Source of the DNA: Patescibacteria group bacterium | GTDB lineage: Bacteria; Patescibacteriota; Patescibacteriia; JBHPGJ01 | DNA: 64,000 nt | Assembly: GCA_042570545.1 (NCBI GenBank) | Contig: JBHPGJ010000005.1 | Location: forward strand, 5,529 to 69,528 | Reading direction: 5' to 3' | Shown here: positions 6,939 to 40,912 of the stretch, piece after piece | How positions within the stretch are numbered: position 1 is the stretch's first letter | Layout of the letters: each line of letters starts with the position of its first letter | Made by a program: the position numbers and the translations under genes | The notes under the pieces: model-generated | Told to the model about the DNA's origin: nothing | The model's database searches: none | The model's input: the letters and a program-made list of their open reading frames with translations, nothing else

Positions 6939-6979
6939 TATATAAATGTAATAATTTGTAGTATAGGTTAACTTATAGA

Positions 6980-6985: not shown

Positions 6986-6991
6986 CAATAT

Positions 6992-8812: not shown

Positions 8813-8883
8813 GTTACTATTGGCCAGTATTTAATAGTTTGGTATACTATTTATACAGGAAATAGTATTAATTAATACATTTT

Positions 8884-9738: not shown

Positions 9739-9756
9739 CAGATACGCAAATCACAT

Positions 9757-16791: not shown

Positions 16792-17934
16792 ATGATACCA
16801 AAGTATATTTTTACTTCAGAATCAGTAACTGAAGGGCATCCCGACAAAGTATGTGATCAAATCTCTGACGCTATATTGGATAACATTATTAAACAAGATC
16901 CACACTCACATGCCGGAATAGAAACCGTGGCGACAACCGGTTTGGTTATGGTAACGGGTGAAATTAGAACCAAAGGTTATGCCGACATCGCCAGTATTGT
17001 CAGAAAAACTATTAAAGAAATTGGCTACACCGATCATACGTATGGTTTTCACTATGAGGACTGTGGAGTGATTGTAAGTGTTGATGAACAAAGCCCCGAT
17101 ATTGCTCAGGGTGTTGATAAAAAAAATCAGGGAGCTGGTGATCAGGGTCTGATGTTTGGTTATGCTACAGATGAGACTGCCGAATTGATGCCATTACCAA
17201 TAACAATAGCTCATAAATTAACAAAAAAATTAGCTCAAGTACGTAAAAAAGGAATTTTGTCATACCTCGGTCCCGATGGAAAAAGTGAAGTGGCTGTCGA
17301 GTATGTAAATGGCCGTCCTAAAAGAATTGAGACAGTAGTTATAGCCACCCAGCACAGTGATAATGTATTAACTAGCAAGATTAGACGTGATGTAATAAAT
17401 AAAGTTATTATTCCAGTCGCTAAGAAATATATTGACAAAAAGACCAAATTTTTTGTTAATGCTACTGGTCGTTTTGTCAAAGGAGGCCCACCGGCTGATG
17501 CTGGCTTGACCGGACGAAAAATAATAATCGATACTTATGGCGGACAAGGCAGTCATGGTGGTGGTGCTTTTTCTGGAAAGGATCCTTCAAAAGTCGATCG
17601 TTCAGCATCGTACATGGCTCGGTATATAGCTAAAAATATTGTGGCCGCAAAACTAGCTAAAAAATGTGAAATCCAATTAGCTTATGTTATCGGGATTGCC
17701 CAACCCATAAGCGTAATGGTTAATTCATATGGCACTGGTGTTTTTGATGATGTAAAACTGGCTAAGATTGTTCGTCGAGTATTTCCGCTTGAGCCAAGAG
17801 AAATAATAAAGCATTTGAAACTGTTACGTCCAATATATCAAGCAACGGCTTCTTATGGCCATTTCGGTCGGAATGGTGCCAAATTTACTTGGGAAAAGGT
17901 TGATAAAATATCAGCGCTTAAAAGTTATTTATAG
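16792..17934 (+). CDS. metK: S-adenosylmethionine synthetase
   Basis: '[24 protein letters not shown]', '[12 protein letters not shown]' and '[17 protein letters not shown]'. Confidence 0.92.
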
Positions 17935-25384: not shown

Positions 25385-26485
25385 ATGAATATCACTCTCA
25401 TTAACGAGTTATACGGCACTACCAGACATGGCGGTGAACAAATAGCATCCCATAACTTATTTATTGGCGCCGGTAAAAATAATTTAGATTTAAATGAATT
25501 TAGTTTGAGTGGTCAGGACAATACAATCAGAATTATCACCCGTCTACCAAAATGGTTATTTATCACACCTTATCTTAGGGAATTAATTGGCTTGCCACTT
25601 TTAGCAAAACAGATCATCAACAAAGCCGAGGAGGCAGATATAATTCATTTAACCAGCCCAACTTTATTCGCTTGCCGGCGGCCAAACAAGCCGTATATTG
25701 TAACTGTTCACGGACTAAAATCAGAGAAAGCACAACGTCTTGGAAAATTAAATATTAGGTATAAACTTTTATTTAACCCATTAGTGATCTGGATGTTAAA
25801 AAAATTAGAACGACGTGGACTAATATCAGCTTCACGAGTAATAGCCTTAACTGAGCGTACTAGGGATTATTTAGTTGATAATCTTGACCTGCCAGCAGAC
25901 AAAATAAAAATAATACCTAATGGGGTTGATATTGATGAATTTCCCTTTAGGGCATTGAGTCAGGGGCCAGTATTATTTGTGGGACGTGCATCGATACCCA
26001 AAGGCATTGATATATTATTTGCAGCGGTTAAAAAATATAAATTTCCATTAGCTATAGTAACCAAAAGACTATCAAAGGTTTTAGAACAAGAAGCTAAAGT
26101 ACTCGGTATCACCGTTTATAAAAACATACCCCATGATCATATTGACGAGATTTACAGTCAGGCGAGCATATTCGTATTACCCAGTCGCGATGAAGAGCAG
26201 CCATTAACAATTTTGGAAGCCATGGCGTCGGGATTGCCAATAATAACTACCAAAATTGGATCGGGCGGGCTTGTTACCGACGGTCAGAATGGCATAATTG
26301 TATCAGCCGATGCTGACCAGGTTGGTCAAGCAATAATTAGGCTAATGAATGATAAAACTTGGCGTGACGACCTGGCCAAAACAAGCCGAACCATAGCCGA
26401 AAAATATACCTGGCAAAAAGTAATCGCTATGTATATCAATATTTATAATGAGGTAGTATCTACCAAAGGCTCAACTAGCTCATAA
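25385..26485 (+). CDS. GT4 (GT-B) glycosyltransferase
   Basis: 'FVGRASIPKGIDIL' and 'EEQPLTILEAMASGLPIITTKIGSGGLVTDGQNGIIV'. The start is trimmed to ATG 25385, just after the upstream stop. Confidence 0.8.
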   Translation: MNITLINELYGTTRHGGEQIASHNLFIGAGKNNLDLNEFSLSGQDNTIRIITRLPKWLFITPYLRELIGLPLLAKQIINKAEEADIIHLTSPTLFACRRPNKPYIVTVHGLKSEKAQRLGKLNIRYKLLFNPLVIWMLKKLERRGLISASRVIALTERTRDYLVDNLDLPADKIKIIPNGVDIDEFPFRALSQGPVLFVGRASIPKGIDILFAAVKKYKFPLAIVTKRLSKVLEQEAKVLGITVYKNIPHDHIDEIYSQASIFVLPSRDEEQPLTILEAMASGLPIITTKIGSGGLVTDGQNGIIVSADADQVGQAIIRLMNDKTWRDDLAKTSRTIAEKYTWQKVIAMYINIYNEVVSTKGSTSS

Positions 26486-28143
26486 AGTCGAAGAGATAAA
26501 CCATCGGGCCGGGTTACTTTGTATAACTTATTGAAGTACTTTTGACCTTCTGGGGTATCAATGATATTACTTAAGCCATTTATGGGTATTGAGTCATAGA
26601 GACCCTGTCTAGCGGTCTGACGCTCATCAATTAGAAGATAGTTTATTGGGTATTGTTTAATTAGATTGTAGGCCTGATTTGCGTTATTGGTGGCAAATAT
26701 TTCCGGTATATCAGCTCCGCCACCGTTAGAAATCCAAAAACGTCGGTATCTTGCATAATCAACAAAATTGGTTGAAGCTGTCATTACAATGGTGTCGTTG
26801 GGTAAATTATTACTCACATATTCACCTAGGTGGCGATAAACTTCGAGCGATTCAGAGTCTTGGCGCCCTGAATTTGCGTAAAAAGGTTGATGAAATTGTG
26901 TAATAAAAGTGTGGGTAAAAATGAAAATAATTAATAATATTACGCTTAAATTTATAATTTGTGGTTTTCTTAACTTAGTTAATATTATTAATAAATATAT
27001 AATCCCTGATGTTAATATCATAATTAACAATGAAACACCGAAAATATGATACTGCCAAATAGCAGTATCGGTGAAGTAGGTGAACAGAATTTCGCCAGTT
27101 AGCATCACCAAGACAATAATACCTAGCTTTATATTTTTACGGCTAATATAATAAAATCCTAATAATATCAATACCAATATTATCAACGATCCGATTAAAT
27201 TCCACTCATCTAGGGGGAGGGTATTGTCAAAAGTAAAGGGAAATGACAGGTAGGCCAGCATTACGCTCGTCAATGAGGGATATGAACGTAAGTAACCTAA
27301 TCTGGAAGATTGTATATCTCTGGCCTCTTCATCAGCTGGATATTTGTTATTGGTAATATTTTGGTAATAGGGAATTTTATCAAGTACACCCGAAGTGCCC
27401 GAGCCCGGGACATAACCAATTGTACCATTACGATTAAGATGCTCGAGCTGAAAGGGTAGAGTTATTACCATCATTAAAATTAGTAATACTATACTCTGAC
27501 GCCAAAAATTATCTTTATTTCTAATATACTTGATAAGCCCAAACATAATTATGATTATTAATAACAAGGGCAGTATCAATAATCCTTGCTGTTTTAAGCT
27601 CATGGCCAAGCCACCGGATAAGGCTGTCAGGAAAATGTATAACCACTTACCGCTTCTAGTCCACTGGATAAAAAAATAAATTGTTGCCAACATCGCAGTA
27701 AGAAGCGGTTGTTCTATTATTGGGCTCATTATGAATCTCTTTAAATTAAAAATTACAGCCAATACAGCCGCCAAGGCTGCCAGTCGCCGATCAATTGGCT
27801 TAAGTATTAAAAAGATCAATAAGGCTGACAGAGAAGCAAATAGCAATGATGATGCTTGTAGCAGTATGTCACCACCCAGCCATAATATACCGGCGTATAG
27901 CAAATAAGCAGCTTCTGGGTAATTTATTGGTGCGTTAATAGCTTGATCGTTAGCATCAAATTTTAAGGCGATATAAGGATTATCTGGCAATGGCCAGCCT
28001 TGATCCAGGATTGTTTCGGTAACAATTTTATGATATTGGGCATCGCCATAAATATTTGTAGAAAAGGTGTAAATGCCGATCAATAACAATACAACCGCGA
28101 TCACCACCGAGCCGATAATTAGATCTAACCTTTTCTCATTCAT
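26443..28143 (-). CDS. Polytopic membrane protein, probable GT-C-fold glycosyltransferase
   Basis: About eleven transmembrane helices. The first extracytoplasmic loop carries 'GDAQYH' (a DxxY-type motif) and there is a C-terminal soluble domain. Its 3' end overlaps the convergent GT4 gene by 43 nt. Confidence 0.45.
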   Translation of the reverse strand: MNEKRLDLIIGSVVIAVVLLLIGIYTFSTNIYGDAQYHKIVTETILDQGWPLPDNPYIALKFDANDQAINAPINYPEAAYLLYAGILWLGGDILLQASSLLFASLSALLIFLILKPIDRRLAALAAVLAVIFNLKRFIMSPIIEQPLLTAMLATIYFFIQWTRSGKWLYIFLTALSGGLAMSLKQQGLLILPLLLIIIIMFGLIKYIRNKDNFWRQSIVLLILMMVITLPFQLEHLNRNGTIGYVPGSGTSGVLDKIPYYQNITNNKYPADEEARDIQSSRLGYLRSYPSLTSVMLAYLSFPFTFDNTLPLDEWNLIGSLIILVLILLGFYYISRKNIKLGIIVLVMLTGEILFTYFTDTAIWQYHIFGVSLLIMILTSGIIYLLIILTKLRKPQIINLSVILLIIFIFTHTFITQFHQPFYANSGRQDSESLEVYRHLGEYVSNNLPNDTIVMTASTNFVDYARYRRFWISNGGGADIPEIFATNNANQAYNLIKQYPINYLLIDERQTARQGLYDSIPINGLSNIIDTPEGQKYFNKLYKVTRPDGLSLRLYELVEPLVDTTSL

Positions 28144-29597
28144 ACTGTTGTATCTTCGTGATTGGGTTTAGATCGCCACACTAACAACGATTTAATATCT
28201 GATAATGCAAGTTCTTTGGTTATATGAAGTACTAAGAAAAATACTATTGGCAGCAATATATATGAACTAATCGAACCAGTAATCGTGTTGGGGAACAAAT
28301 AGCTCAGTAAAACAATAGTAGCACCGGCAAATAATATTTTAAGGACTGAAGACATTGGAATAAATGACCGGTGTTTGGCATATACAATAATACTAGTAAT
28401 AACAAAGCCTAGTAGAGCCATTAAACCCGAAGCTAATGCCGCACCGGCTAATCCATATTTTGGTATTAGGAGTATATTAGCCACTATATCAACAATCAAT
28501 AAAGATAAAACGTAATAAATAATACTTACTGGACGCCGGCCACCAATTATAATAGTGGTGGTTAACTTAAATAGTGTTAGAAAAAACATGCCCGCTGCTA
28601 AAATTGTTAACGGCCAGGCAGCCGGGCTAAAAGCATCAGTATATAATATATTTATTAAATTATCAGCCGTGGTCATTATTAATATTGTCAGTGGTAGGAT
28701 AATAATTATGCCAATTCTTAAGGTCTGTCTTATATAATACGATATTTTTTCATAATTCTGTTGCGCGATAGCAGCCGATATAGACGGTAACAACACTACC
28801 GCTAATGAAGTAAAAAGAAAAAAGGGCAATCTAGCAATGGTCGAGGCGGCAGTATAATAACCGGCTGCTTCTGTGTCTGCCATTAGTATTTTGACCATAA
28901 AGAGATCAATATTAAAAATAAGGGGAAACATAATCAGATAGGCAATTAGAGGTAAGGTGGTAACAATAAGTTTTTTAGCTGGAAATATTTCATCTCCTTC
29001 TGGTCGCCGCTCCATTAAGTACCAGGCAAAAATTAAACCACCCAATCCACCCGCTAGATAGGCAAATAAAACTCCAGCGATTCCTAAGCCTATCCACAAA
29101 ACTGTTATGACGCCAATAATTTTTACCGTTGCCCCGGCGATCATTGAAACAGCTTGTTTTCCAAATTGTTGTTGACCATTAAGAAAACTTTGGTATAAAG
29201 ATCTAAAACCGTATATCGGAGCGATTAGAGCCAAGATACGAATAAAATTTGTAATATCGGGTTCGTTAAATAATTTAGCCAGCGGATTAGCGAGAATAAT
29301 AAACAATCCAGCAAATATTATGGCTAAACTTAACTGAATTCGTTTAGAAATTTTAATAATACTTTTCGTCGCCGCGGGTTTTTCAGCAATATATTTTGAT
29401 GTAGCTAGGAACAAGCCGGATCCAAAAAAATATTCCGTCAAACTGAGTGTATATATAACTACTCCCAATACTCCATATTCGGCCGGACCAAGAAATCGTC
29501 CAAGCAATACTTGTATAATATAACTTGATCCGAGAAAAATGGCGTTAGCTATGGTGAGATATAATGCGCCCCTTTTAAAAGCCTGGCTCATAACCAT
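28140..29597 (-). CDS. Wzx-type polysaccharide flippase (MOP superfamily)
   Basis: 'FKRGALYLTIANAIFLGSSYIIQVLLGRFLGPAEYGVLGVV' with about 12-14 transmembrane segments. Confidence 0.75.
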   Translation of the reverse strand: MVMSQAFKRGALYLTIANAIFLGSSYIIQVLLGRFLGPAEYGVLGVVIYTLSLTEYFFGSGLFLATSKYIAEKPAATKSIIKISKRIQLSLAIIFAGLFIILANPLAKLFNEPDITNFIRILALIAPIYGFRSLYQSFLNGQQQFGKQAVSMIAGATVKIIGVITVLWIGLGIAGVLFAYLAGGLGGLIFAWYLMERRPEGDEIFPAKKLIVTTLPLIAYLIMFPLIFNIDLFMVKILMADTEAAGYYTAASTIARLPFFLFTSLAVVLLPSISAAIAQQNYEKISYYIRQTLRIGIIIILPLTILIMTTADNLINILYTDAFSPAAWPLTILAAGMFFLTLFKLTTTIIIGGRRPVSIIYYVLSLLIVDIVANILLIPKYGLAGAALASGLMALLGFVITSIIVYAKHRSFIPMSSVLKILFAGATIVLLSYLFPNTITGSISSYILLPIVFFLVLHITKELALSDIKSLLVWRSKPNHEDTTV

Positions 29598-30684
29598 TTG
29601 TAATTAGGTCATATATTGAGCTGACAGTATTATTCATCTGACCATGTTCGGGTAAATGTATTATTTTGGGCGGATGTTTTTCAGCTATGGATTGTAGTAG
29701 TATTTTTTGCTGGTTAGCTAGTTTGTTAAGTTTACGACTGACAATAATGGGATTGACGAATTGACTCATACGATACCATGACAAGAAATCCCGACGCTCG
29801 TATTCTAAGCATAAGCTCATAACTTGAGCATATGTCTCAGCCGGCATATCTTCATATTTAAATTCTTCAGTATTGATTCTGGCAATGAGAAAAAGGTCAG
29901 TTAATTTTGTCTCACCGACTATTTGGTTGACCGGAAAAGCTTGACGCAATGGTATTCTTACATGACCCTTAGCATCAAGTACTTGTTTTACCTCGCGAGC
30001 ATAATGGGCAATAGTGTTATTACCCTTGGCAAAAGGTGACATGGTTTTTAGAACTAAACTGTTTAAAGCAAATAATGCACGTAATTTTTTTGGTGCCTTT
30101 TTTTTCAGCTCGGGATAATGTTTAAAATTGTAATTGAATAAATTTAACGATTTTGGATAAGCATAGATATTATCCTCATCAATTATTGTCCAATCATCAG
30201 CCAAATAGCCCGCTCCACGCTTTAACATGCCCAAGACCAAGTTACTCTTTCCGGTATGGGCCCAGGCACTAAAGACGACGCCGTGCTGGTTTAGTTTTAC
30301 CGCCGAGGCATGAATGAAAAGTGCTTTCTTAAAAGTTATATAAAATTGCATCAATGGCTCAAGCACCTGAATAAAAAACAGCGGATCAATAGAATGATCG
30401 ACCTGTAATGTTATTTTATCCTTATCGAGATCGTTAAAGGACATTTTTATAAAAGATGAAGCGCTATCCTTTATATAAGTATGTTTGTCTTTAACAGCAA
30501 TAGCAGAACTAATCAAAGTGGCAGTGGGGGGGATTATTAGGCGGGTAAATTCAATATTAATATCAGCTTTATTTTCTGGGTTATGCTCGATCATCAGTGG
30601 TAACTCAGCGGTAAACCAATCACTGACTTTAGTTGGCGGATTTCTCAGTTCAACTCTAATTTTATTATAAATATTAATAATCAT
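29575..30684 (-). CDS. HprK C-terminal-domain-like P-loop protein, paralog with a degenerate Walker A
   Basis: 'FIHASAVKLNQHGVVFSAWAHTGKSNLVLGMLKRGAGYLADDW' parallels the HprK 'HG..v.i.G.GvLi.G.SG.GKSe.AleL...Gh.LvaDD' block. Confidence 0.5.
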   Translation of the reverse strand: MIINIYNKIRVELRNPPTKVSDWFTAELPLMIEHNPENKADINIEFTRLIIPPTATLISSAIAVKDKHTYIKDSASSFIKMSFNDLDKDKITLQVDHSIDPLFFIQVLEPLMQFYITFKKALFIHASAVKLNQHGVVFSAWAHTGKSNLVLGMLKRGAGYLADDWTIIDEDNIYAYPKSLNLFNYNFKHYPELKKKAPKKLRALFALNSLVLKTMSPFAKGNNTIAHYAREVKQVLDAKGHVRIPLRQAFPVNQIVGETKLTDLFLIARINTEEFKYEDMPAETYAQVMSLCLEYERRDFLSWYRMSQFVNPIIVSRKLNKLANQQKILLQSIAEKHPPKIIHLPEHGQMNNTVSSIYDLITNGYEPGF

Positions 30685-30685
30685 T

Positions 30686-31687
30686 TTAAATCAGTTGTTT
30701 GTTTATGGCGGATAGTTTAGCCGGACGATTATAGGCTAATAGTACTTTTTCTGTCGAAGAAAGCAACCGTCTTAATCTTTGCCCCCTGGTATCATTAGTA
30801 ATTGGATTTGACACAATGTTATTTAGATATTTTATAGGCGAGTGATAATGGAATTCCTTGGTTTCTTCGTGCATCTGTTCAATTTTTTCAGCTAAACTTA
30901 CATCATTTATTTTGTTTAGTTCAAAGTTGGGAGATGACTCGACAAAAAATATTTTTTTTATTATTGCTACGTTGGTCAACTCATGTTCGTTTAAATTTAA
31001 ATGATATTTTCCAAATACTTTGTTGCCTGACACCTTACGTCCAATTAGGGTGGCTGTTTCATTTGCAATTCTGACTACTTCAGGAAAGGCATATACTTTG
31101 TCATCCTTATACAATGTAAAATTATCAGCCATTAATTTATAGCCATCATTTAATAATGATAAGGCTAGAGTAGTTTTGCCAGAACCATTAGCACCAGTAA
31201 AGATTAATGCTTCATCATTCTTGGCTACAGTAGCAGCGTGTATGATACTAAAACCATCACGTTCTAATAACCAGAACAGTGGGTAATGCAATAAAAAGCG
31301 TATTATTCTTTGGTACATTTGTAGCTGAAAAGTTTTTCGGTTGATAAGTGAAAGAATTTTGACCATCATTGGCTCATAATACTGCGCTGTTACATCCAGT
31401 TGGTCATCATGATAGTTCATGTTAGCAGTTAGTTTTGTATGGCGATGGGATAATAAGGGGTCATATAATATTGAATTCTTATTTATAATTACGCTGGGAG
31501 AAATATATTTACCGGTGATATTTTTTATTGGGACTGAATAATTTAATACAATATCAGCATGAGAAATGTTTTCAGTGACGAATAATGAATAGTTATTTTT
31601 GATGAAATTTAAAAAATTGTCATCATTAATATTGCATTTAATTTCAAGTCCATGTACTGATAGATTTATTGTTTTTAAATCGGTCAT
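30686..31687 (-). CDS. HprK C-terminal-domain-like P-loop kinase homolog
   Basis: 'IIHAATVAKNDEALIFTGANGSGKTTLALSLLNDGYKLMADNF' matches the HprK Walker-A core. Confidence 0.55.
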   Translation of the reverse strand: MTDLKTINLSVHGLEIKCNINDDNFLNFIKNNYSLFVTENISHADIVLNYSVPIKNITGKYISPSVIINKNSILYDPLLSHRHTKLTANMNYHDDQLDVTAQYYEPMMVKILSLINRKTFQLQMYQRIIRFLLHYPLFWLLERDGFSIIHAATVAKNDEALIFTGANGSGKTTLALSLLNDGYKLMADNFTLYKDDKVYAFPEVVRIANETATLIGRKVSGNKVFGKYHLNLNEHELTNVAIIKKIFFVESSPNFELNKINDVSLAEKIEQMHEETKEFHYHSPIKYLNNIVSNPITNDTRGQRLRRLLSSTEKVLLAYNRPAKLSAINKQLI

Positions 31688-34626
31688 TTACTTATTGACA
31701 CATTACTTATGTAGACTCCAATTCCTCTTTCGCTTTCGCGAGTTATCAGTTCCTCGCCGCTTTGTACCACCTTAAAATTAAGATCATTCCAGCCGGACTT
31801 AATACTTGGTAGAATCAAAGTTACAATCTCTTCTTCGATTGTAATGTTTTTACTCAAAATATTGGTGCCATTAAGATCAATATTTAATTCAGTTAAAGGT
31901 AATAAACCACGCAGAGTAAATTCTAATGTATAATCGTCTGAATTATCCGTTGAATATAAGTAAATGGAAGAGTCGCCTTTTAATTCTCTTTCCGCGATAC
32001 CATTACTGGTATGGCTGATCTTGCGCCATTGGCTTTCTCCAAGAACAGGTAGGGGAGTCGTAAAATCAGTAGCCGTGAATACTAACGAGTAATCACCACC
32101 AGTAATTCTCTTAAGTTTTAATGACCCCCAAGTATTTGCAAATTTTTGCATAAAAGTTATATAAGCCTGACGAAGTTTTGTTGAATCAATAGTTAGTGTT
32201 TGCTGATCAAACAAACTTGCAGCCGACTGAATTGTTTGCTTATAATAATCCTCCGAGTAGAAATCCTGGGCTTGCAACCATAAGTCAGGATTGATACTGC
32301 CAGTTATAAGCTGTTGCCATAAGGGAAAGCCGTAAATTTCCGGCCAATCTGTAAGTCCGGGAATGGCTTCTGATAGTCTTGGAATATTGAAATTATTAAA
32401 ATAATAGGCAGTAGGTGTAATTTCTTTCAATTCTTGACCATGGGGATATTTATCTGTACTTATAAACGAATCATCTATTAATGATAATGATGTCACTTTC
32501 ATGTCATTACTTTTAGAGGGATTACGAGCATTCCTAATATTTATTCTTATGGTGTGTTGGCCAGGCGCCAAATTATCTAAAGGCAAAGAAAGTATATTTA
32601 ACTCAGGCCAAGCATAAAAGGTTCGACCAATAAATTTTTCATCTATTTCATGATATACCAATAGCGGCTCATTGTTACTGGTGGTCATTTGCACTGTAAA
32701 GTCTTTCGTAGTTTCACCGGAATTGTTAATAATAATTTCACCCCCATTATCCAGATTTCTGGCTGAAGTATCTTCCGTTGGCTGACTCCAATTTGATTCA
32801 TTCGCTACAGATATGTAACTTTCTGACGTTCCCTGATATTCTGGTACGCGATAGGCTATTAATTTATCGTCTTCATATTCAGTCGGTAGAGATAATACTT
32901 CAGTAATAAATTTCTTAAGCATAATAAAGTTCTCAGGTAAAATTTCATATGGTCCCTGACCGATATATTCTTTACTTAGAGTAACATATTTAATTTTCCA
33001 TTGTTTGAATATGGTCTTAGATAATTGTCTATAGTCATATGATATAACATCGTTAACGCTTTTACCTACTGGTAGTAAGTATAGAAGTTCTCTGATAATT
33101 GGCGTATTTTTTTGTTGATTATATTTATCGGGAGTTTTTCTGGCAAAGTCCAAACCGCCTATTACATCTTTATGATGGATAGCTTGACGATAGCGCGATT
33201 GAGTTTCATAAGTATAGCTGGTACTGCTGGGTATCTCGATTATAGAATAATCATCTGGCTCTGATAGTAACTGATCATAAAAAGCGGGATATTCTAAAGA
33301 AGTGGTAGGCAATGGTACCACAAAATATTCAACACCAATTATTATGATGAATAAACCGGCAACAGCATTTTTTATTTTGTTACTGTCTATTCGACGAAGT
33401 AAATAACTAATACCAAAAGCAGCAGCAATAGCCAGTGCCAGGTAGGAAATTATATCCAAACGATTGACTGAACGTATATTATTAAAAAAAGGTACCAAGG
33501 TAGGAAATAACAAGTATGGCATCGGGATTTTTGGTGATAATATACCGGAAATATGTAGGAATGGTCCTAATGAAAGTATATAAAATCCGATACCGGTGAA
33601 ACCCCAAAATAATGGTTCTTTATATTTTTTAAATAAAGATATCATTACTAATATAATTAGCCCCAATCCTAAGTAGCCAGAATTTTCGGCCGTATTGCCG
33701 GTGAAGCTAGCTCTAATTCCAGAGAAAGTATCACCGAATATTGCACTTAGTTTTGGTGGCACAATGCTACTTAGGGCATCATTTGAGTAAGCGCTGATTT
33801 GATCTAGGGGTACTTGGAGATAGTTATTATCAGAAAATACTATTTGAAATAGATTGCGATAAGAGTATAAGAAAATAATAACGGCAACAATGGCTATAAT
33901 AATCAACCATTTCTTTATTTGCTTGTTATACAAAATTGAAGGATTACGATAGATATAAAAACTAAGTAGAGGAATTAAAAAAATTATATAGAAAACAGCA
34001 AAATGCGGTTCACCATAAATTAATAAAATGAAAAATATTAGGGTATAAAATAAATATTTTAGCTTTTGATGATGTATAGTTTTTAAAAGAAATAGAGTAG
34101 TGAAGGGGATCCATTGAATGTGGGTAGCCCCAGAAAAACCCATTGACCAGGCCAGATGGGCCGGATTAAAAGCAAAAATAAAACCGGCTAATATAGCTGG
34201 CAATTCAAGCTGGTAGATACGGTTTTTAATTGTATCTTTAAAGGTATTGAGGATGACAAATCTGGTTAATAAATAAGTCCCCAAACCAGCCAGAATAAAA
34301 GACAGTAGCCAGAAAATATTATAGCCAAGCGGTACGTCAAATATGAGTGAAAAATAAGAGTACAACTGATTGGTGCCTAATTTTAATGATCCAATGTCAG
34401 CAAAAAAACCACTCAGTTGTCCCTGGGCCTGGTAGTCAGATATTTTATTTAGTATAATTGCCAGGACGTTATGTACATCACCGGGCTGGCCAGGTACTTT
34501 TTCAGTAGCATCTTTAATTAAGGGGTAAGTAAGTGCCAGAGTAGCAATTATATATAGGGCCAGAACAAATAATATGGTCCCTTTTTTTACCTTTAAATCT
34601 GCTTTCATTCCATAACATACTATCAA
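31684..34626 (-). CDS. Large polytopic membrane protein with a ~500-aa C-terminal extracytoplasmic domain (YfhO/GT-C-like)
   Basis: 980 aa. N-terminal half has at least 12 transmembrane helices, and the C-terminal half is hydrophilic. No catalytic motif could be firmly assigned. Confidence 0.45.
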   Translation of the reverse strand: MIVCYGMKADLKVKKGTILFVLALYIIATLALTYPLIKDATEKVPGQPGDVHNVLAIILNKISDYQAQGQLSGFFADIGSLKLGTNQLYSYFSLIFDVPLGYNIFWLLSFILAGLGTYLLTRFVILNTFKDTIKNRIYQLELPAILAGFIFAFNPAHLAWSMGFSGATHIQWIPFTTLFLLKTIHHQKLKYLFYTLIFFILLIYGEPHFAVFYIIFLIPLLSFYIYRNPSILYNKQIKKWLIIIAIVAVIIFLYSYRNLFQIVFSDNNYLQVPLDQISAYSNDALSSIVPPKLSAIFGDTFSGIRASFTGNTAENSGYLGLGLIILVMISLFKKYKEPLFWGFTGIGFYILSLGPFLHISGILSPKIPMPYLLFPTLVPFFNNIRSVNRLDIISYLALAIAAAFGISYLLRRIDSNKIKNAVAGLFIIIIGVEYFVVPLPTTSLEYPAFYDQLLSEPDDYSIIEIPSSTSYTYETQSRYRQAIHHKDVIGGLDFARKTPDKYNQQKNTPIIRELLYLLPVGKSVNDVISYDYRQLSKTIFKQWKIKYVTLSKEYIGQGPYEILPENFIMLKKFITEVLSLPTEYEDDKLIAYRVPEYQGTSESYISVANESNWSQPTEDTSARNLDNGGEIIINNSGETTKDFTVQMTTSNNEPLLVYHEIDEKFIGRTFYAWPELNILSLPLDNLAPGQHTIRINIRNARNPSKSNDMKVTSLSLIDDSFISTDKYPHGQELKEITPTAYYFNNFNIPRLSEAIPGLTDWPEIYGFPLWQQLITGSINPDLWLQAQDFYSEDYYKQTIQSAASLFDQQTLTIDSTKLRQAYITFMQKFANTWGSLKLKRITGGDYSLVFTATDFTTPLPVLGESQWRKISHTSNGIAERELKGDSSIYLYSTDNSDDYTLEFTLRGLLPLTELNIDLNGTNILSKNITIEEEIVTLILPSIKSGWNDLNFKVVQSGEELITRESERGIGVYISNVSISK

Positions 34627-34717: not shown

Positions 34718-37321
34718 ATGATAAATTTGCTATCGCCAAATTCCGGTGACAATTTAAATCCGGATATTGGTTTGCCAAGATACAAAAACTGGCGAATCGT
34801 AATCAAGCTCATATCATTTATTGGAATGATAGGGGTGATAGCATTACTGGTTGGGCGATATTTATTGGTTGAAAAATATTTCTGGTTAAGCAGTCTAGAT
34901 GAGATTGTGTTAGTTTTGTTATTTATTGATTTTCTGGTTCTATATTTATCAATGAATTTTAAAACAGCTAAAATCCGATCTATTTTATATTGGTTGCTAA
35001 GTATTCTGTTAATGATGAATTTTGTTTGGGGCATTGCTCAAGTAAATTACCCCCAGGTTGATCTATATTCTTTTAATATCGACCTAAACTATATTTTAAT
35101 TATTGCCGGACTTTTACTAATACCCATAACAAAAACTAAAAAAGCCACTTTTTTTATAGGGTTAATCATTTTTTTATTACTACCCGATACAAGCATTTAC
35201 CCGTTGCTGCTAATTTCTTTACTTGTGTTTTTATTTATACGTGAATTTGTTAAAACAAGTCAAATAACTATACCAAGAGAAGTGATTGTAAGGTTACTTA
35301 TCGGTTTTTTGGGATTACTGTTTCTGATTAATTTAATGAATTTTATTCCGACGAATATTCTGTCCGATGCCATATTGATCATCGATAGTATTTATAAATA
35401 TCATCTTTATATAATTACCCTGATTCTGGCCATAGTACATTTTCATATTTTGCATCGAGTTGAAAATGACAGAATAAAACCATCGATTAGCCAACAGCCT
35501 TCTGGAAAGAAACCATGGCCAATAATTATTGGTTTGGGAGTTGTAACTATAATTTATCTCTTTTTTAGTTTTCAAAGCTGGCGGTTTATTTCAATTGGGG
35601 AGACCAAATGGCTTAATCTAAGAAATGATGAAATAGTTTTAGTTGAGGGTTATGATGATATTTCTCCCGAAGTAGTCAAAGAAACATCTGCCCGCTGTGA
35701 ATCCTATTGGACGGCATACCTTGCAGGAAATATTAAAGCCACTTTTAATAATCCAAATCCTAATGCCTCCCTTTGTTTTTACCACCTGCCTGGTTATCTA
35801 ACTAGAAATGTTACCAGTCTTGATCAATATATTTTAATTGCTCGGGTAACAATTATTGTTCACAACCTTTTAATCTTATATCTCATCTTCTATCTTTTAA
35901 ACCGATTGCTATCGGCGAAACAGGCGCTAATTATAACTGGTTTAATGGGCCTCCAACCACTTTTTATAGGTTATTCTCGGGTATACAATCATGATGCTAT
36001 ACAGGGATTATATGCGGTCAGTTTTATTTTATCTTTACTCTTAGCATTAAAAAGCAAAAGCCGTAAACATCTGGCCTTGGCCGGAGCGATGTTCAGTTTA
36101 GCGCTGTTTACTCAATTCAAAACGCAATATATTGTTCCCTTATTGTTTATTATGCCGATAATAGGCTGGTATCTATGGAACGATAAAAAAATAATTAGTT
36201 TCTTGGCACGTAATCTTTCTTCTTTTTATAAGGCTGCTATCATAATAACTATTATTATAATACCGGCGGTATTAGTATTTCCTAAATTAATTATTGATCG
36301 CTTCTTTTTTTACTACGGTAGCCCGATGGTTCTACTGGCAACTTTTTTCGCCATTATTCTGTTCTTGACTGCTTATTATCGGTTCCATTATATTACGACA
36401 ATTTTTAAATATATTAAGAAGTTAGAAAAGTACTTTGTTAGGATCTTTATTATAGCACTCCTTGGTTTATTCATTACTATTTTATGGCAACAAGATAATA
36501 TATTCAGTAATTATTTATATCAGTATTTTTTACCAAATTTTAGGCCGGCATTATGGACCGCCTCCTCAATATTATTTTATTCTCTGCCGCCAATCGTTTT
36601 ATTGTTTTTAATATTTTGGCTGATTAAATACTATATAAAACCAAAAATTGATTTTTCCTCTCTCTTTGTTATATTATTTTTCCTCAGCTTTATTTTAATT
36701 GCCTTGAATTCTATGGCCACCAGTAATAAGCTGGGCGATGGCTTTGTCGTAGTTGGGTCTAAGTATGTATTTACTATATTACCCTTATTAATTATAGGTT
36801 TAGGTGCGTCAATTACACTAAATAAGATGTCATACAAACGCCTATCGATTATTTTCATTTTTATAATATCTTCGTTAGTTTTCTCTAACCTATCGATAGC
36901 ACCCTTTTATCACGATTATAGTAATTTTTTACTGCCCGATAATCAGATCAATGCGCGCAGTAGCTGGGCGACTGATACAGGAATACTAGCCGATTATATT
37001 AATAGCAATTTTGCTAATGTAGAAGTTTATCATCCCAAGGGTACGTTGGGTTATTTAGTCAGGGAAGATATTAAGGTAATCAGCTGGTCGGATCTTTTTT
37101 GGGAAGAAAATCCTGATTATATTATAGTAACCTGGGACAAAACACATCGCTATGCCAAGATATTTGATTATTACCGGTATAACCTCCAGCCAATTTGGTC
37201 CATTGAACATAATGGCGTAGTGTATGTGGGAATATATAATTTTGATCCGTCAATAGATTATGATCAGCTATTTGAGGAAACTATTGAATTTAATAAATCT
37301 TTGCAAAATTATTTTGATTAA
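34718..37321 (+). CDS. Large polytopic membrane protein, probable GT-C-fold (ArnT/PMT-like) glycosyltransferase
   Basis: 867 aa, extremely hydrophobic, with more than 20 predicted transmembrane helices. It is divergent from the 31684..34626 gene. Confidence 0.45.
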   Translation: MINLLSPNSGDNLNPDIGLPRYKNWRIVIKLISFIGMIGVIALLVGRYLLVEKYFWLSSLDEIVLVLLFIDFLVLYLSMNFKTAKIRSILYWLLSILLMMNFVWGIAQVNYPQVDLYSFNIDLNYILIIAGLLLIPITKTKKATFFIGLIIFLLLPDTSIYPLLLISLLVFLFIREFVKTSQITIPREVIVRLLIGFLGLLFLINLMNFIPTNILSDAILIIDSIYKYHLYIITLILAIVHFHILHRVENDRIKPSISQQPSGKKPWPIIIGLGVVTIIYLFFSFQSWRFISIGETKWLNLRNDEIVLVEGYDDISPEVVKETSARCESYWTAYLAGNIKATFNNPNPNASLCFYHLPGYLTRNVTSLDQYILIARVTIIVHNLLILYLIFYLLNRLLSAKQALIITGLMGLQPLFIGYSRVYNHDAIQGLYAVSFILSLLLALKSKSRKHLALAGAMFSLALFTQFKTQYIVPLLFIMPIIGWYLWNDKKIISFLARNLSSFYKAAIIITIIIIPAVLVFPKLIIDRFFFYYGSPMVLLATFFAIILFLTAYYRFHYITTIFKYIKKLEKYFVRIFIIALLGLFITILWQQDNIFSNYLYQYFLPNFRPALWTASSILFYSLPPIVLLFLIFWLIKYYIKPKIDFSSLFVILFFLSFILIALNSMATSNKLGDGFVVVGSKYVFTILPLLIIGLGASITLNKMSYKRLSIIFIFIISSLVFSNLSIAPFYHDYSNFLLPDNQINARSSWATDTGILADYINSNFANVEVYHPKGTLGYLVREDIKVISWSDLFWEENPDYIIVTWDKTHRYAKIFDYYRYNLQPIWSIEHNGVVYVGIYNFDPSIDYDQLFEETIEFNKSLQNYFD

Positions 37322-37324
37322 TAT

Positions 37325-38614
37325 ATGTTGAGAATTTTTACTAAGGATTTCAAGCAAGGAAAAAATATATTAATTTTTATGTTCTTTAAAGTACTGGGTG
37401 GTGTTTTTGCCGCCTTGCTACCCCTAGCGTTGGCCAAAATACTTGCTCCAGACATAATGGGCTCATTTTCACTGTTTAAGATGATTATTTTTTTCGTCAT
37501 CACGTTTTTTATTGCTCCATTGGCCTATCCGTTTAATATCGAGTCCAATAAAGAATACGCCGCAAGAGGCAAGTCGAATCAGACGTTTACTTCTTTCTTA
37601 ATATACATTGTTTCAACCGTAATTTTGTTTTTTGCTATTTTTGTACTTTTTGGCAAGCAGCTGATCGGCTTTACCGGACTTTCCTATCAAGAATATAAGT
37701 ACATTTTTATTCTAGCCTTCTTAGGACTGGCCCTGTTTCGCATTTTGAATGTATTTTTCTTGGGTCAAAACAAAAAGACAATCCATGCCATTATTGATAC
37801 CGTATATCCTCTGACCCACATAATCTATTTAGTGATTATTTATTATCTTAATATTTTTACCTTAGCCAATGTTCTTCTTGGATATTTTATTGCCGCTGTC
37901 GTGGTCGGTTTAATATCTCTATTTTTCATAGATTATTCTCGAGTGCGACCGCTACAATTTTCTAAAGAAAATTTCAAAGAAATAGGGAGGTTCGGCAGTT
38001 GGGTTATTTTAGGCACAACGGCCGGTTATTTTATCAATTGGGGAGATAATGTTGTGCTAAAGTATTTTGTATCATTATCTGATATTGGTGTGTATAACCT
38101 TGCTTATCAGTTCTTTTTAATGGGCTTAATGCTTCGTTTTTTTATTGGACAATATTATACACCTTTTCTTAGCCAAAAAATTTCCGATAAAGAAAAAATA
38201 ATAAATTATTTCAAGGTAAAAAGGAAGAAAATATTAACCTACTTACTACCCGCTTTTTTAGTTGCTGAATTAGTAATTGGATATGTAATAAGATTGCTTT
38301 TTGATCCTAGTTACTGGGGAGCGATTAATGTTATTAGAATTTTATTGGTGGCAAATATCTTAATGATTATAATCTCATTTCATTTACCAATATTTAATAT
38401 CATTAAAAAATATAAATTAGCTAATATTACTCTAATATTACAACTTACCTTAAACGTGGTATTAAACATTATCCTGGTTCCGTACTGGGGGATTGTGGGG
38501 GCGGCAGTCGCCACTACCGTCGCCTATCTGGTATATGTTATTATAATAGCTATATTATTTAAAAATAAAATTAAACCGGCGCTTAATGATATTTGGATAA
38601 ATAATAAGGAGTAA
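37325..38614 (+). CDS. Wzx-like polysaccharide flippase (MOP superfamily), second copy
   Basis: 'FFKVLGGVFAALLPLALAKILAPDIMGSFSLF' N-terminus and a 12-transmembrane topology. Confidence 0.6.
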   Translation: MLRIFTKDFKQGKNILIFMFFKVLGGVFAALLPLALAKILAPDIMGSFSLFKMIIFFVITFFIAPLAYPFNIESNKEYAARGKSNQTFTSFLIYIVSTVILFFAIFVLFGKQLIGFTGLSYQEYKYIFILAFLGLALFRILNVFFLGQNKKTIHAIIDTVYPLTHIIYLVIIYYLNIFTLANVLLGYFIAAVVVGLISLFFIDYSRVRPLQFSKENFKEIGRFGSWVILGTTAGYFINWGDNVVLKYFVSLSDIGVYNLAYQFFLMGLMLRFFIGQYYTPFLSQKISDKEKIINYFKVKRKKILTYLLPAFLVAELVIGYVIRLLFDPSYWGAINVIRILLVANILMIIISFHLPIFNIIKKYKLANITLILQLTLNVVLNIILVPYWGIVGAAVATTVAYLVYVIIIAILFKNKIKPALNDIWINNKE

Positions 38615-38657: not shown

Positions 38658-39389
38658 ATGAAGTTTATTATTATCGGTATACAAAGGTCAGGCACAATAA
38701 TGCTGACCGCTTTTCTTAATTCACACCCCCAACTGACTTGTTATGCCGAAGAAGGCGCCCAATTCCTGGAAGAACTAAAAGATAATGAGGGTAGTAATTT
38801 AAAATATAACCACATTTTACCTAATACGCCGCTTCAAAATTACAAAATTTTACACCTGATCAGAAAGGATTTATTTGCCCTGTCACTATCAAAAGTTATT
38901 AATAAGCACCAATCAAAATACGGCCGACCAGCACATATATTTAATCGATCAAAAGCCGAAGATTTAGAATTTCCTATTAGTAGTAATTATCCCAAAAGAA
39001 AATTATTATTATCAACATTACCGCAGTCAGCAAAATCAAGGAATAAACAAAAAAGTCCGGTAAAAATTAACCCTTGGGAAATAAGATGGGAAATGCTTAA
39101 AAATTATTATCAGGTTACTCGTTGGAATGAAAAATTGAAGAAGTATGATCCCCTGGTAATCAACTACGAAGATATTACTCAGGGAGGGGAAGTTAATGTA
39201 ATGCCCCAACCAATTGCCGATAATGTCTGCGACTTTTTAGGAGTTAAACATTGTCAATTAACAACATCAATGAAAAAAGTAAACCCAAAAAATTACGAAG
39301 ATTATATCGTCAACTGGAAAAAAATCAGTAAAATTGGCGGCAGCATTACCAAAAAATACCAAAATAAAATTGAATACCTAATCAAATAA
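38658..39389 (+). CDS. Sulfotransferase (Stf0-like family)
   Basis: 5'-PSB P-loop 'IIIGIQRSGTIML' and 3'-PB 'RKDLFALSLS', which fits Stf0 'RRDVLAQAVS'. Confidence 0.7.
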   Translation: MKFIIIGIQRSGTIMLTAFLNSHPQLTCYAEEGAQFLEELKDNEGSNLKYNHILPNTPLQNYKILHLIRKDLFALSLSKVINKHQSKYGRPAHIFNRSKAEDLEFPISSNYPKRKLLLSTLPQSAKSRNKQKSPVKINPWEIRWEMLKNYYQVTRWNEKLKKYDPLVINYEDITQGGEVNVMPQPIADNVCDFLGVKHCQLTTSMKKVNPKNYEDYIVNWKKISKIGGSITKKYQNKIEYLIK

Positions 39390-39394: not shown

Positions 39395-40213
39395 TCAAAC
39401 TTTTTTTGCTAAGATAAGTCTAGTATCGTTGCAACGGTTTTGATATTGGTGATAAATATTTTTATTTATTTTGGGGTAATAAAGTAAATAATCAACCTGC
39501 TCGATAATTTTGCAGTGATTTTGCAGTATATCAACAATATCGTTCCACTCAATATGATCATCAGGCCAAACGTGAATATCTCCTTCTGCTTGATAGCGCT
39601 TATTAATGAAATTCTTAATAAAAAGACCTTTCACAAAGTTCCAGCTGAATAATTCACCCGATTTCAACGAAGAAGATAATTTTTCCCAAAACGTTTTCTT
39701 GATAAGCTGATAATATTCATTTAATACTGGATTGGGGTGCCAATGATTATTATTGGTTTCGTGGTCGATATATACCAGGCCGTTCTTTTTTGTTACTCGG
39801 ACCATTTCCTCAATGGCTGATAGATAATCTGGTATGTGGTGCAGTACTGAATATGTTGAAACAATATCAAATGAATTATCAGGAAAAGGCAATGTCTGTC
39901 CGTTATAAGGTTTGACTTTCAAATTTGGCGAATTAGATTCTTGGCTCAAAATATTCAATGATTTTTCTGAAACATCACAAGCAGTCACTTGACAACCAAA
40001 ATTGATAAATTTTTTTGTTAAATTCCCCGTACCGGCTCCAAAATCTAATACCTGAATGGATTTTAATTTTGTTCTAGAAATAATATCCTTGATTATATTA
40101 TTCAATCTATGCTGTTCGATATCATTATAAATTTCATCATGTTTTTGATTATACTTACAAGCGATCTTGTCGTGGGTAATACGATTATATTTAATTTGTT
40201 TATTGTCTGTCAT
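39395..40213 (-). CDS. Class I SAM-dependent methyltransferase
   Basis: Motif I 'VLDFGAGTGNLTKKF' and 'CDVSE'. Confidence 0.75.
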   Translation of the reverse strand: MTDNKQIKYNRITHDKIACKYNQKHDEIYNDIEQHRLNNIIKDIISRTKLKSIQVLDFGAGTGNLTKKFINFGCQVTACDVSEKSLNILSQESNSPNLKVKPYNGQTLPFPDNSFDIVSTYSVLHHIPDYLSAIEEMVRVTKKNGLVYIDHETNNNHWHPNPVLNEYYQLIKKTFWEKLSSSLKSGELFSWNFVKGLFIKNFINKRYQAEGDIHVWPDDHIEWNDIVDILQNHCKIIEQVDYLLYYPKINKNIYHQYQNRCNDTRLILAKKV

Positions 40214-40252: not shown

Positions 40253-40912
40253 TTATTTTCCAAAAGTGTAGCCGAATAATTCAATATCTTCCTGAAAATG
40301 CCGGGCAACAAAATCTTTAGTATACGTATCATAATATTCAGAATAATTTTTGTGTCGACTCACGTTTTTGAACGGTAAAGAGACATCAATTCCGATAGTA
40401 TTTGTCACATAAGAAAAATCATTTTCTAGATTTTCAAATCGGCCGATAAAGTCAACCAGCTGAGCAGACTCAAAATAAAAGAAATCTTTTTGTGTATACA
40501 TCCAATTTTTTACAAACCATTCCAGATAAGAGCGAAAAGAATCTAATTTTTTAACTTTTTTATGACGAATATTATTTTTACTCTGAGATATAAAGTGATA
40601 TAAGGAAACATGGAGATCCCACGGATTTCTTACAAAACCGAATTTAAATGCTTCTTGCCAAAAAGCAGGGTTAATATTATTTTTCACGTCAAATGCAGTC
40701 TGGTGCTTATTAAAAGAGGGAATAAATGGCACGTAACGGCTGATAAAGGGATTTAACCGCTGGCCGAAAGGGGAGCCCTCACAAAGTTTATGAAGCCAGG
40801 CGCTGTGGAGAGGATTGATAACGCCATATGATTTAAGGGCATTGACAATACTTTCTCCCGCCACTTTTCGGTTGTGGATAAAGATAAATTTATTTTTATA
40901 AGAAATTAGCAT
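40253..40912 (-). CDS. Sulfotransferase (carbohydrate-sulfotransferase/Sulfotransfer_2-like)
   Basis: 5'-PSB 'FIFIHNRKVAGESI' (compare PKVACT/PKTGGT) and 3'-PB 'FVRNPWDLHVSLYHF' (compare VRDPFERLVSAY). Confidence 0.6.
   Translation of the reverse strand: MLISYKNKFIFIHNRKVAGESIVNALKSYGVINPLHSAWLHKLCEGSPFGQRLNPFISRYVPFIPSFNKHQTAFDVKNNINPAFWQEAFKFGFVRNPWDLHVSLYHFISQSKNNIRHKKVKKLDSFRSYLEWFVKNWMYTQKDFFYFESAQLVDFIGRFENLENDFSYVTNTIGIDVSLPFKNVSRHKNYSEYYDTYTKDFVARHFQEDIELFGYTFGK

Follow-up and report, generated by a model that had tools for sequence, protein, structure and literature searches.

A tandem pair of two-domain PEPCK/HprK-superfamily proteins in a patescibacterial glycan locus, a candidate glycan phosphotransferase

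Introduction

PEPCK and the C-terminal domain of HprK (HprK-C) share one superfamily of P-loop proteins. Here we analyse a tandem gene pair of this superfamily, designated K1 and K2, which lies on the minus strand of a 64,000-nucleotide stretch of DNA (contig JBHPGJ010000005.1, positions 5,529 to 69,528, assembly GCA_042570545.1; hereafter the window). The window has a low GC content (36 %), its source is given at NCBI as 'Patescibacteria group bacterium', and the K1/K2 proteins carry the locus tags ACFL04_02130 and ACFL04_02125. The pair is embedded in a glycan locus, and we tentatively propose that it phosphorylates a glycan precursor.

HprK/P (PF07475, TIGR00679) is an oligomeric sensor enzyme with active sites that span subunits; its P-loop is written (G/A)xxxxGK(S/T) and Asp179 serves as the proton acceptor (PMC9399212). 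Like HprK/P, K1 and K2 belong to the superfamily and have His, [AG]xxxxGK[ST] and Asp(-Asp) in one and the same linear order, with matching spacing. However, HprK/P is the product of a single gene and forms a homohexamer, whereas K1 and K2 are a heterologous gene pair in a glycan context; their N-terminal domain aligns with PEPCK and not with the N-domain of HprK/P, and the proton-acceptor Asp179 is replaced by Asn in K1. ATP-PEPCK (PckA; PF01293, TIGR00224) is the best structural match to the pair across both domains. Nevertheless, it is about 530 aa long compared with 333 aa for K1 and 369 aa for K2, identity is only ~10 %, and its setting in gluconeogenesis is unrelated to the surroundings of the pair.

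A His-Lys-Asp-Asp/Glu-type site, the full tetrad of which K2 shares, is found in the HprK-related A proteins and in the kinases of lasso-peptide and linear polyphosphorylated peptide (LPP) clusters (PadeK, ThcoK, PsmK and LppK). In the lasso-peptide enzymes the His-Lys-Asp-Asp tetrad is essential, as judged by mutagenesis (reviewed in PMC9266682). These kinases and K1/K2 alike appear to be accessory 'decorating' enzymes, and the peptide clusters may hold sulfotransferases, nucleotidyltransferases and glycosyltransferases (GTs). They differ from K1 in possessing DD or DE where K1 has DN, and from both proteins in that K1 and K2 are longer and paired, with K2-like genes only occasionally solo. 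A true HprK_rel_A gene, from a Vibrio plasmid, is a single gene encoding 299 aa with the Walker A sequence APSGSGKST, followed by a nucleotidyltransferase gene. Furthermore, lasso and LPP clusters hold an RRE, a precursor, a leader peptidase and a cyclase or exporter; no RRE, precursor, leader peptidase or exporter was found near K1/K2.

Two further relatives resemble K1 in particular. The newest Pfam release groups K1-like proteins with ScmC-like relatives of HprK (PF27840, TIGR04249, SynChlorMet); ScmC, however, belongs to a radical-SAM/SPASM peptide cassette, and such a cassette is absent at the K1/K2 locus. The FomB family (NF000361) belongs to the same superfamily, is of similar size (a model of 325 positions) and matches K1-like proteins weakly over ~110-150 residues (E 1e-4 to 1e-3). 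FomB is an example of a relative able to act as a kinase on small substrates other than proteins, although no phosphonate biosynthesis context surrounds the K pair.

Results

K1 and K2 are two-domain members of the PEPCK/HprK superfamily

AlphaFold (AF2) models of K1 (pLDDT 88.3, pTM 0.87) and K2 (pLDDT 86.7, pTM 0.83) were built from an alignment of eight sequences. Both display the two-domain architecture of PEPCK, an N-terminal domain followed by a P-loop domain. When the models were compared with the PDB using Foldseek, K1 matched ATP-PEPCK with an E value of 4.8e-9 and a query-normalised TM-score (TMq) of 0.47-0.50, while K2 matched it with a TMq of 0.53-0.58 over ~410-420 columns. The ATP-PEPCK matches of the two models had E values from 5e-9 to 1e-6 and ran over ~380-420 columns, so both domains are covered. 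Matches to HprK/P (E 1.7e-5 for K1 and 2e-5 for K2) involved the catalytic domain only, with target-normalised scores (TMt) of 0.44-0.57. Foldseek assigned both models a probability of 1.0 to PEPCK and to HprK/P. No fold other than PEPCK/HprK fell below E 0.1 for K1 or appeared among the top 50 matches of K2.

Searches of PDB sequences with family profiles gave a similar ranking for K1, with a better E value for PEPCK (0.001) than for HprK (0.017) and the K1-family segment 'FwlLErkG..H..v.K.g..iFtGanGsGKttL' aligned with the PEPCK sequence. This alignment spans only the block from His through the P-loop to Asp. The K2-family profile returned HprK alone, and not significantly.

Of the curated models, TIGR04352 (HprK_rel_A) was the best match to K1 (53.0 bits, E 2.6e-14) and K2 (25.6 bits, E 5.7e-6), and 15 further family members scored at most 52 bits; the cutoff of this model is 200. 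TIGR04355 (HprK-related B, GAK system), with the same cutoff of 200, gave 30.1 bits for K1 and 24.8 bits for K2 (E 1e-5 for the latter). Scores were lower still for TIGR00679 (HprK/P; 14.3 and 18.4 bits for K1 and K2, cutoff 240) and PF07475 (Hpr_kinase_C; 17.4 and 18.1 bits, E 0.002-0.003, cutoff 33.3). K1 scored 17.3 bits against PF01293 (PEPCK; cutoff 26.5), 15.8 bits against the ScmC equivalog TIGR04249 (cutoff 125) and ~20 bits against the FomB model NF000361 (E 2.5e-4, cutoff 400). Neither protein reached the cutoff of any curated HprK, HprK-related A or B, ScmC or PEPCK model. Precomputed Pfam annotation assigns PF27840 'ScmC' to K1 and its close homologs and leaves K2-like proteins without an assignment.

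K1 and K2 both combine the fold with the ordered His ... [AG]xxxxGK[ST] ... Asp that marks the PEPCK/HprK-like P-loop superfamily. They are two-domain members of that superfamily and are neither HprK nor PEPCK. An earlier first-pass annotation of the window had described the pair as HprK-C-like and pointed to TIGR04352 and TIGR04355. The superfamily placement stands, whereas membership in the two TIGR families does not (25-53 bits against a cutoff of 200), and both Foldseek and the K1-family profile rank PEPCK above HprK, which goes part of the way towards the refutation that the annotation itself had tied to a PEPCK placement. Because PEPCK and HprK-C fall within one superfamily, this ranking relabels the proteins as 'PEPCK/HprK-superfamily two-domain kinases' and does not refute the original description. 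No transmembrane (TM) segments are predicted in K1 or K2.

K1 and K2 are ancient paralogs with distinct catalytic motifs

Translation of the minus strand confirmed both open reading frames (ORFs) and the motifs quoted for them in the first-pass annotation (coordinates in Table 1). The catalytic block of K1 reads HAATVAKNDEALIFTGANGSGKTTLALSLLNDGYKLMADN and that of K2 reads HASAVKLNQHGVVFSAWAHTGKSNLVLGMLKRGAGYLADD; the spacing from His to Asp is equal in the two. A BLASTP comparison of K1 with K2 gave E 6e-11 across a 61-residue core, and alignment of the K1-family and K2-family profiles with hhalign extended over 308 columns (probability 98.6 %, E 1.4e-15, 14 % identity). The paralogy proposed earlier is thereby upheld and, since the family profiles align over this length, the sequences identify K1 and K2 as old, full-length paralogs that share more than a P-loop. 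K2 additionally bears a helical insertion at approximately residues 184-240.

The key residues of K1 are His150, the Walker A sequence GANGSGKTT (165-173) with Lys171 and Thr172, Asp188 and Asn189. Those of K2 are His125, AWAHTGKSN (140-148) with Lys146 and Ser147, Asp163 and Asp164. The HprK/P residues His140, Lys161, Ser162 and Asp179 thus correspond to H125, K146, S147 and D164 in K2 and to H150, K171 and T172 in K1, where Asn189 takes the place of Asp179 and aligns with the second Asp of the HprK 'VADD' sequence. Counterparts of HprK/P Glu204 and Arg245 had no reliable position in the profile alignment. Compared with the tetrad of the lasso and LPP kinases, K2 is complete (His-Lys-Asp-Asp) while K1 is His-Lys-Asp-Asn. 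An alignment of 10 K1/K2-like sequences shows no variation at the His, at the P-loop Lys or at the first Asp.

The first-pass annotation had called the Walker A sequence of K2 degenerate. AWAHTGKS, however, satisfies [AG]xxxxGK[ST], and in nine K2-family sequences of 26-43 % identity the residues H125, A140, W141, T144, G145, K146, D163 and D164 are all invariant. The pattern AWxxTGK[ST] occurs in 9/9 of these sequences, and an AW-type Walker A in ~25/154 family representatives. As the motif both fits the consensus and is invariant at this divergence, it is a selected variant of the Walker A motif rather than a product of decay. Judged by the tetrad, the deviant partner is K1 and not K2.

We considered K1 as a dead subunit on account of its Asp-to-Asn substitution, and withdrew this interpretation because both members of one distant pair (L027) carry Asn. 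DN-type proteins make up 85/154 of the family; given this and L027, DN cannot simply mean inactive. Within the family, Asn at the second Asp position seems to be a legitimate alternative.

Tandem asymmetric pairs are the rule in the family

When 1.84 billion representatives were searched exhaustively with a profile, 173 cluster representatives (50 % identity) matched at E<=1e-30 and 2744 did so at E<=1e-10. With few exceptions, these proteins are 320-370 aa long and matched end to end. It was from this search that the family emerged: single-sequence and word-indexed searches gave 5 + 2 relatives, and an alignment query gave none extra. With at least 173 clusters at the stricter threshold the family is sizeable, and it is without a curated functional model. 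Tandem loci were located by scanning metagenomes with a K2-specific P-loop pattern, together with look-ups of representatives; the combined K1 and K2 alignment was too diverse to scan by pattern. One apparent relative from a back-translated P-loop pattern (L005, Gorillibacterium) proved to be an ABC-transporter ATPase.

In 13 further independent loci (L001, L006, L007, L008, L010, L011, L014, L015, L017, L018, L019, L026 and L030), ranging over GC 28-71 %, a K2-like gene is immediately preceded, on its own strand, by a K1-like gene. In most cases the reading frames of the two overlap; in L010 and L014 they are 77-93 bp apart. Every K1-K2 pair for which motifs were read (12 of the 13 loci, and the window) combines one DN with one DD protein. 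Tandem asymmetric paralog pairs are therefore the rule in this family, and the rule as read from the motifs is a sharp one: one DN-type and one DD-type protein, sometimes fused. Solo K2-like genes occur occasionally (L009, L013, L016 and L029).

The fused case is found in L026 (66 % GC), where a Wzx gene is followed by a K1-like gene (ADNF; 6913-8004) and then by a gene (8001-10190) encoding a 729-aa protein, P0069. This is a natural fusion of two K2-like units, the first with AWGQTGKTA/GDDL and the second with GWKQMAKTA/GDDF, in which the P-loop Gly is missing. Two fused K2-like units beside one K1-like gene hint at a 1:2 stoichiometry or a ring-like assembly.

A distant low-GC branch (L002-4, L024/25 and L027) is likewise organised in tandem pairs (L002 8943-11056; L024 8001-10161; L027 7297-9425). 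In one partner of these pairs the Gly that precedes the P-loop Lys is substituted by Phe or Leu (GRGGAFKT, GRGGSLKT, GRGGSFKT), and here the Walker A motif is truly degenerate. L024 is a 957-kb NCBI contig and is probably archaeal, since a Trm5/TYW2 gene lies nearby. A tblastn search of annotated plasmids found only true HprK_rel_A genes and a single K2 relative, a solo 431-aa protein (AWRGAGKTN/SDDR; L022 8710-10005) on a megaplasmid of the haloarchaeon Halobaculum halobium (NZ_CP126159.1). Its gene adjoins those of a 'phosphotransferase', a DNRLRE-domain protein and a cohesin-domain protein.

These loci bear on the original suggestion that K1, with its canonical Walker A, is an active kinase and K2 a pseudokinase or regulatory partner. 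K1 and K2 are clearly divergent paralogs retained as a pair, and the family does include asymmetric pairs in which one member is crippled, as the damaged P-loops of the distant branch and of the second half of P0069 (GWKQMAKTA) attest. For K2 itself, however, the motif conforms to [AG]xxxxGK[ST], true HprK_rel_A itself carries APSGSGKST, and the invariance of AWxxTGK[ST] in the K2 subfamily speaks for selection. Moreover, the full tetrad His125/Lys146/Asp163/Asp164 resides in K2, while the Asp-to-Asn deviation (Asn189) resides in K1. We consider this assignment of roles very improbable.

Nearly all K1-K2 pairs reside among glycan genes

Nearly all pair loci lie amid GT4, GT2, Wzx and sugar-nucleotide genes. 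The glycan-locus placement given in the first-pass annotation is thus borne out, and pairs with similar surroundings recur in nearly all of the 13 further loci, a positive outcome for the co-occurrence check that the annotation had suggested. Directly downstream of the K2-like gene (15 loci) we found GT4 five times, Wzx three times, and GINT1_N and PAPS_reduct (CysD-like) twice each. Among 81 other neighbours were 13 GT4, six methyltransferases, five GT2, five epimerase/RmlD, four Phosphodiest, two Wzy_C and two NTP_transf_5 genes. A Wzx homolog is situated directly after K2 in L001, L007 and L008, and directly before the K1-like gene in L026. A solo K2-like gene (L029) falls within a run of seven GT4 genes, and the distant-branch pairs are located in loci with GT, Alg13-Alg14 and Wzx genes.

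In the window the pair belongs to a set of five minus-strand genes, in the order 980-aa membrane protein, K1, K2, Wzx and GT-C. The first two of these genes overlap by 4 bp, K1 and K2 are separated by 1 nt, K2 and Wzx overlap by 23 bp, and Wzx and GT-C overlap by 4 bp. As all five ORFs abut or overlap, they form a single translationally coupled operon. The flanking genes are those named in the first-pass annotation: the flippase is identified by Polysacc_synt_3 (E 1.9e-29), Polysacc_synt (E 7.4e-27) and MurJ (E 3.2e-16), and the 980-aa protein has at least seven TM helices within its first ~440 aa, followed by a non-membrane domain of ~540 aa. The latter protein had no sequence matches in Pfam, NCBIfam, PADLOC or the PDB, and a comparison of flanking genes did not find it kept beside the pair in other loci. 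The GT-C candidate scores slightly under the gathering score of PMT_2 (E 2.3e-5) and has ~9 TM segments; a counterpart of it is encoded in L001 (E 3e-42).

Proximity to a flippase raises the alternative that the pair is an NTP-driven regulator or assembly factor of Wzx/GT-C export, analogous to the bacterial tyrosine kinases (BY-kinases) Wzc/CpsD or operating as an HprK/P-like kinase/phosphorylase switch. P-loop BY-kinases control Wzx/Wzy pathways, the pair is directly beside Wzx in five loci (the window, L001, L007, L008 and L026), it has no constant biosynthetic partner gene, and a pair of paralogs of which one has a deviant site is a typical arrangement for regulatory ATPases. HprK/P, for its part, offers a precedent as an oligomeric sensor with subunit-spanning active sites (PMC9399212). 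However, in most loci GT4 rather than a flippase neighbours the pair, L026 possesses a separate ParA/AAA_31-like (BY-kinase-like) gene beside the module, and no conserved membrane anchor or partner polysaccharide co-polymerase (PCP) protein accompanies the pair. A regulatory role of this kind, argued by analogy, seems to us quite improbable.

Two other roles were rejected. A function in the supply of 3'-phosphoadenosine 5'-phosphosulfate (PAPS) was discarded, as the window already encodes CysN/CysC, CysD and CysQ. A function in defence was discarded also, as the PADLOC scan gave only mad8 (E 2e-4), on the P-loop.

A peptide or protein substrate

The strongest rival explanation comes from the literature and holds that the pair is a Ser/Thr kinase of a protein or peptide, whether in a hidden pathway for a ribosomally synthesised and post-translationally modified peptide (RiPP), on a protein that is later glycosylated, or as a pathway regulator in the way that HprK/P acts on HPr. 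The best curated match is to HprK_rel_A, and RiPP-associated NTP_transf_5 is present among the 81 neighbours (2/81, including L001). LPP clusters (SpI, RRE, HprK-like kinase, NTP transferase and MsbA) reportedly occur inside glycosyltransferase-rich loci (PMC13381572), and the hexoses of pseudomycoidin are attached onto phospho-Ser (PMC9266682).

Against this, no RRE/PqqD, signal-peptidase-like or other peptidase, ABC exporter or precursor-like ORF is present between 15 and 54 kb of the window. The PF14907 nucleotidyltransferase and PqqD-like RRE that characterise the neighbourhood of HprK-related A are likewise both absent from this interval. There are no unassigned genes or gaps of more than 126 bp between 14 and 55 kb, and no small ORFs within 7 kb of the pair. 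In 18 loci, 65 small ORFs from the intergenic regions close to K genes were searched without a match to PqqD/RRE, and a scan of 49 window ORFs revealed no HPr or PTS (phosphotransferase system) gene. In addition, the fold resembles that of PEPCK, a small-molecule enzyme, over both domains; the scores to TIGR04352 and TIGR04355 are about a quarter of the cutoff or less; and the true HprK_rel_A locus has a single kinase with a nucleotidyltransferase and is without glycan genes. A RiPP role is unsupported, while a protein substrate encoded in trans is possible. Overall, we consider a peptide or protein kinase unlikely.

A proposed function in glycan phosphorylation

We favour, tentatively, the reading that K1-K2 is a conserved cytoplasmic heteromeric phosphotransferase that acts on a sugar or a lipid-linked glycan intermediate before it is flipped. 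Each protein would be a 'mini-PEPCK', composed of a beta-rich N-terminal domain and a P-loop domain carrying the His/[AG]xxxxGK[ST]/Asp block, and we infer that the two products operate as a hetero-oligomer. K2 would provide the complete His-Lys-Asp-Asp site and K1 a second, chemically different His-Lys-Asp-Asn site. Phosphate would be moved from ATP onto a sugar hydroxyl of a glycan precursor or lipid-linked repeat unit at the cytoplasmic face of the membrane, prior to flipping by Wzx and use by the GT-C protein outside. It would represent a further anionic decoration on a glycan that the locus also appears to sulfate and methylate. The weak match of K1 to FomB, a phosphonate-monophosphate kinase, together with PEPCK itself, provides a precedent for non-protein substrates in the superfamily.

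Several observations weigh against this proposal. Kinase activity is predicted from motifs, and the characterised non-PTS relatives (PadeK/ThcoK, PsmK and LppK) are all peptide kinases (PMC9266682, PMC13381572). K1 is without the Asp that HprK/P uses as proton acceptor and that is essential in the lasso kinases. In the distant pairs, GK has become FK or LK in one partner and the P-loop Gly is lost, which leaves room for a non-catalytic subunit or for chemistry other than simple O-phosphorylation. Nor is there a constant third gene beside the pair that would have indicated a particular sugar: an all-against-all comparison of flanking genes gave GT4 and Wzx groups only. The haloarchaeal solo homolog lies outside any typical glycan cluster. 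Finally, the pair of L030 has no glycan genes within 15 kb and is the sole clear exception among the pair loci. This pair (4953-7003, GCA_964473545.1) has as neighbours GGDEF/EAL, metallophosphatase, HrpA helicase and ExbB/ExbD genes, and it could help to separate the intrinsic function of the module from its usual context.

A closely related alternative is that K1 and K2 are two sequential small-molecule kinases which, as FomA/FomB or a sugar-1-kinase would, phosphorylate a soluble precursor before nucleotide activation and not the lipid-linked glycan. Its merits are the PEPCK-like two-domain fold with an interdomain cleft, the FomB-family match of K1-like proteins (E about 1e-4), the sugar-nucleotide and nucleotidyltransferase genes that are common nearby and the fact that known relatives attach several phosphates in series (PMC9266682, PMC13381572). 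On the other hand, a nucleotidyltransferase gene is not consistently adjacent and none is found among the annotated window genes from 15 to 54 kb, while the FomB match amounts to 20 bits against a cutoff of 400. The idea also overlaps the lipid-linked or sugar phosphotransferase proposed above, from which it differs in substrate only. We judge it distinctly unlikely.

Phosphate on bacterial surface glycans is usually ascribed to eukaryotic-like kinases (WaaP, WbdD) or to phosphotransferases with nucleotide or lipid donors. The literature that we searched contained no PEPCK/HprK-superfamily module for glycans and no HprK-like kinase in polysaccharide loci. A bolder extension of the proposal would make K1-K2 a novel type of hetero-oligomeric kinase for glycans, with PEPCK in miniature as its scaffold and a wide distribution among uncultivated bacteria and archaea. 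Through chemically distinct half-sites it would phosphorylate a polyprenyl-linked oligosaccharide before flipping, or polyphosphorylate it in the way of its peptide-kinase relatives, with one paralog serving as a non-catalytic scaffold in some lineages. This extension is conceivable but rather doubtful.

If glycan phosphorylation by the pair were true, a recurrent pair of 'hypothetical proteins' in polysaccharide loci would gain a name and a role, the substrates of HprK-like kinases would widen from proteins and peptides to carbohydrates, and the family would provide a compact model for the evolution of paired active/deviant P-loop paralogs. The module recurs widely, has clear limits, lacks a curated model and lends itself to experiment, and among its carriers are Patescibacteria, a group with hardly characterised envelopes; its chemistry we infer entirely.

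The glycan locus of the window

Table 1. Positions in the window of K1, K2 and the genes discussed in the text
Feature	Position	Strand	Description
K1	30686..31687	-	333 aa, soluble; DN-type paired PEPCK/HprK-superfamily member
K2	29575..30684	-	369 aa, soluble; DD-type; variant Walker A AWAHTGKSN
K1 catalytic block	31121..31240	-	His150 ... GANGSGKTT ... Ala-Asp188-Asn189
K2 catalytic block	30193..30312	-	His125 ... AWAHTGKSN ... Ala-Asp163-Asp164
980-aa membrane protein	31684..34626	-	Operon gene 1; stop overlaps K1 start by 4 bp
Wzx/MOP-family flippase	28140..29597	-	485 aa; start overlaps K2 end by 23 bp
PMT_2-like GT-C glycosyltransferase candidate	26443..28143	-	566 aa; last operon gene; overlaps Wzx stop by 4 bp
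Further PMT_2-like GT-C proteins	34718-37321, 54708-56279	+, +	
Second Wzx flippase	37325-38614	+	
Sulfation genes	38658-39389, 40253-40912, 46629-47504, 48644-49450, 49450-51267, 51268-52173	+, -, -, -, -, -	
SAM synthetase, AdoHcy hydrolase and class-I methyltransferase genes	16792-17934, 59209-60465, 39395-40213, 42093-42857, 42886-43692	+, +, -, -, -	
AsnB-type gene	43711-45516		Full GATase domain
dTDP-sugar isomerase, PfkB, AdoHcy hydrolase and RmlB-like block	57779-61512	+	~26 kb from K1-K2
Small TSP3-repeat protein	8884-9738	+	Upstream of glycan genes
S8 subtilase	12375-14537	+	Upstream of glycan genes

The glycan locus of the window extends over ~45 kb (roughly 15 to 61.5 kb; Table 1). 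Its sugar genes include GT2s, GT4s, UDP-glucose dehydrogenases, a GDP-mannose dehydratase and AsnB; the AsnB-type gene, ~12 kb from the K pair, matches GATase with E 5e-43. Three sulfotransferases are accompanied by their own PAPS set, namely a CysN/CysC fusion (an EF-Tu-like GTPase joined to an APS, or adenosine 5'-phosphosulfate, kinase, E 7e-64), CysD of the PAPS_reduct family and a CysQ-like Inositol_P phosphatase. These three enzymes and a complete PAPS supply and clean-up set suggest that the surface glycan of this Patescibacterium is sulfated. In other loci, too, CysD-like genes adjoin K pairs.

The glycan locus further contains S-adenosylmethionine (SAM) synthetase (MetK), S-adenosylhomocysteine (AdoHcy) hydrolase and four methyltransferases, in effect a local SAM cycle for methylation of the glycan. 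There are three PMT_2-like GT-C proteins and two Wzx flippases, organised in two divergent units around 34.6-34.7 kb. This arrangement points either to two distinct substrates that are flipped or to two steps of glycosylation outside the cytoplasm.

A block comprising a dTDP-sugar isomerase, a PfkB sugar kinase, AdoHcy hydrolase and an RmlB-like dehydratase lies at a distance from K1-K2 in the window. In L001, a related contig, the same block (5221-8935, minus strand) is positioned directly and divergently beside K1-K2-Wzx. The glycan genes are rearranged between the window and L001, while the K1-K2-Wzx unit is intact. Upstream of the glycan genes, the window encodes a small protein in which bacterial TSP3 repeats accompany a weak Wzz-like segment, and an S8 subtilase with FG-GAP repeats.

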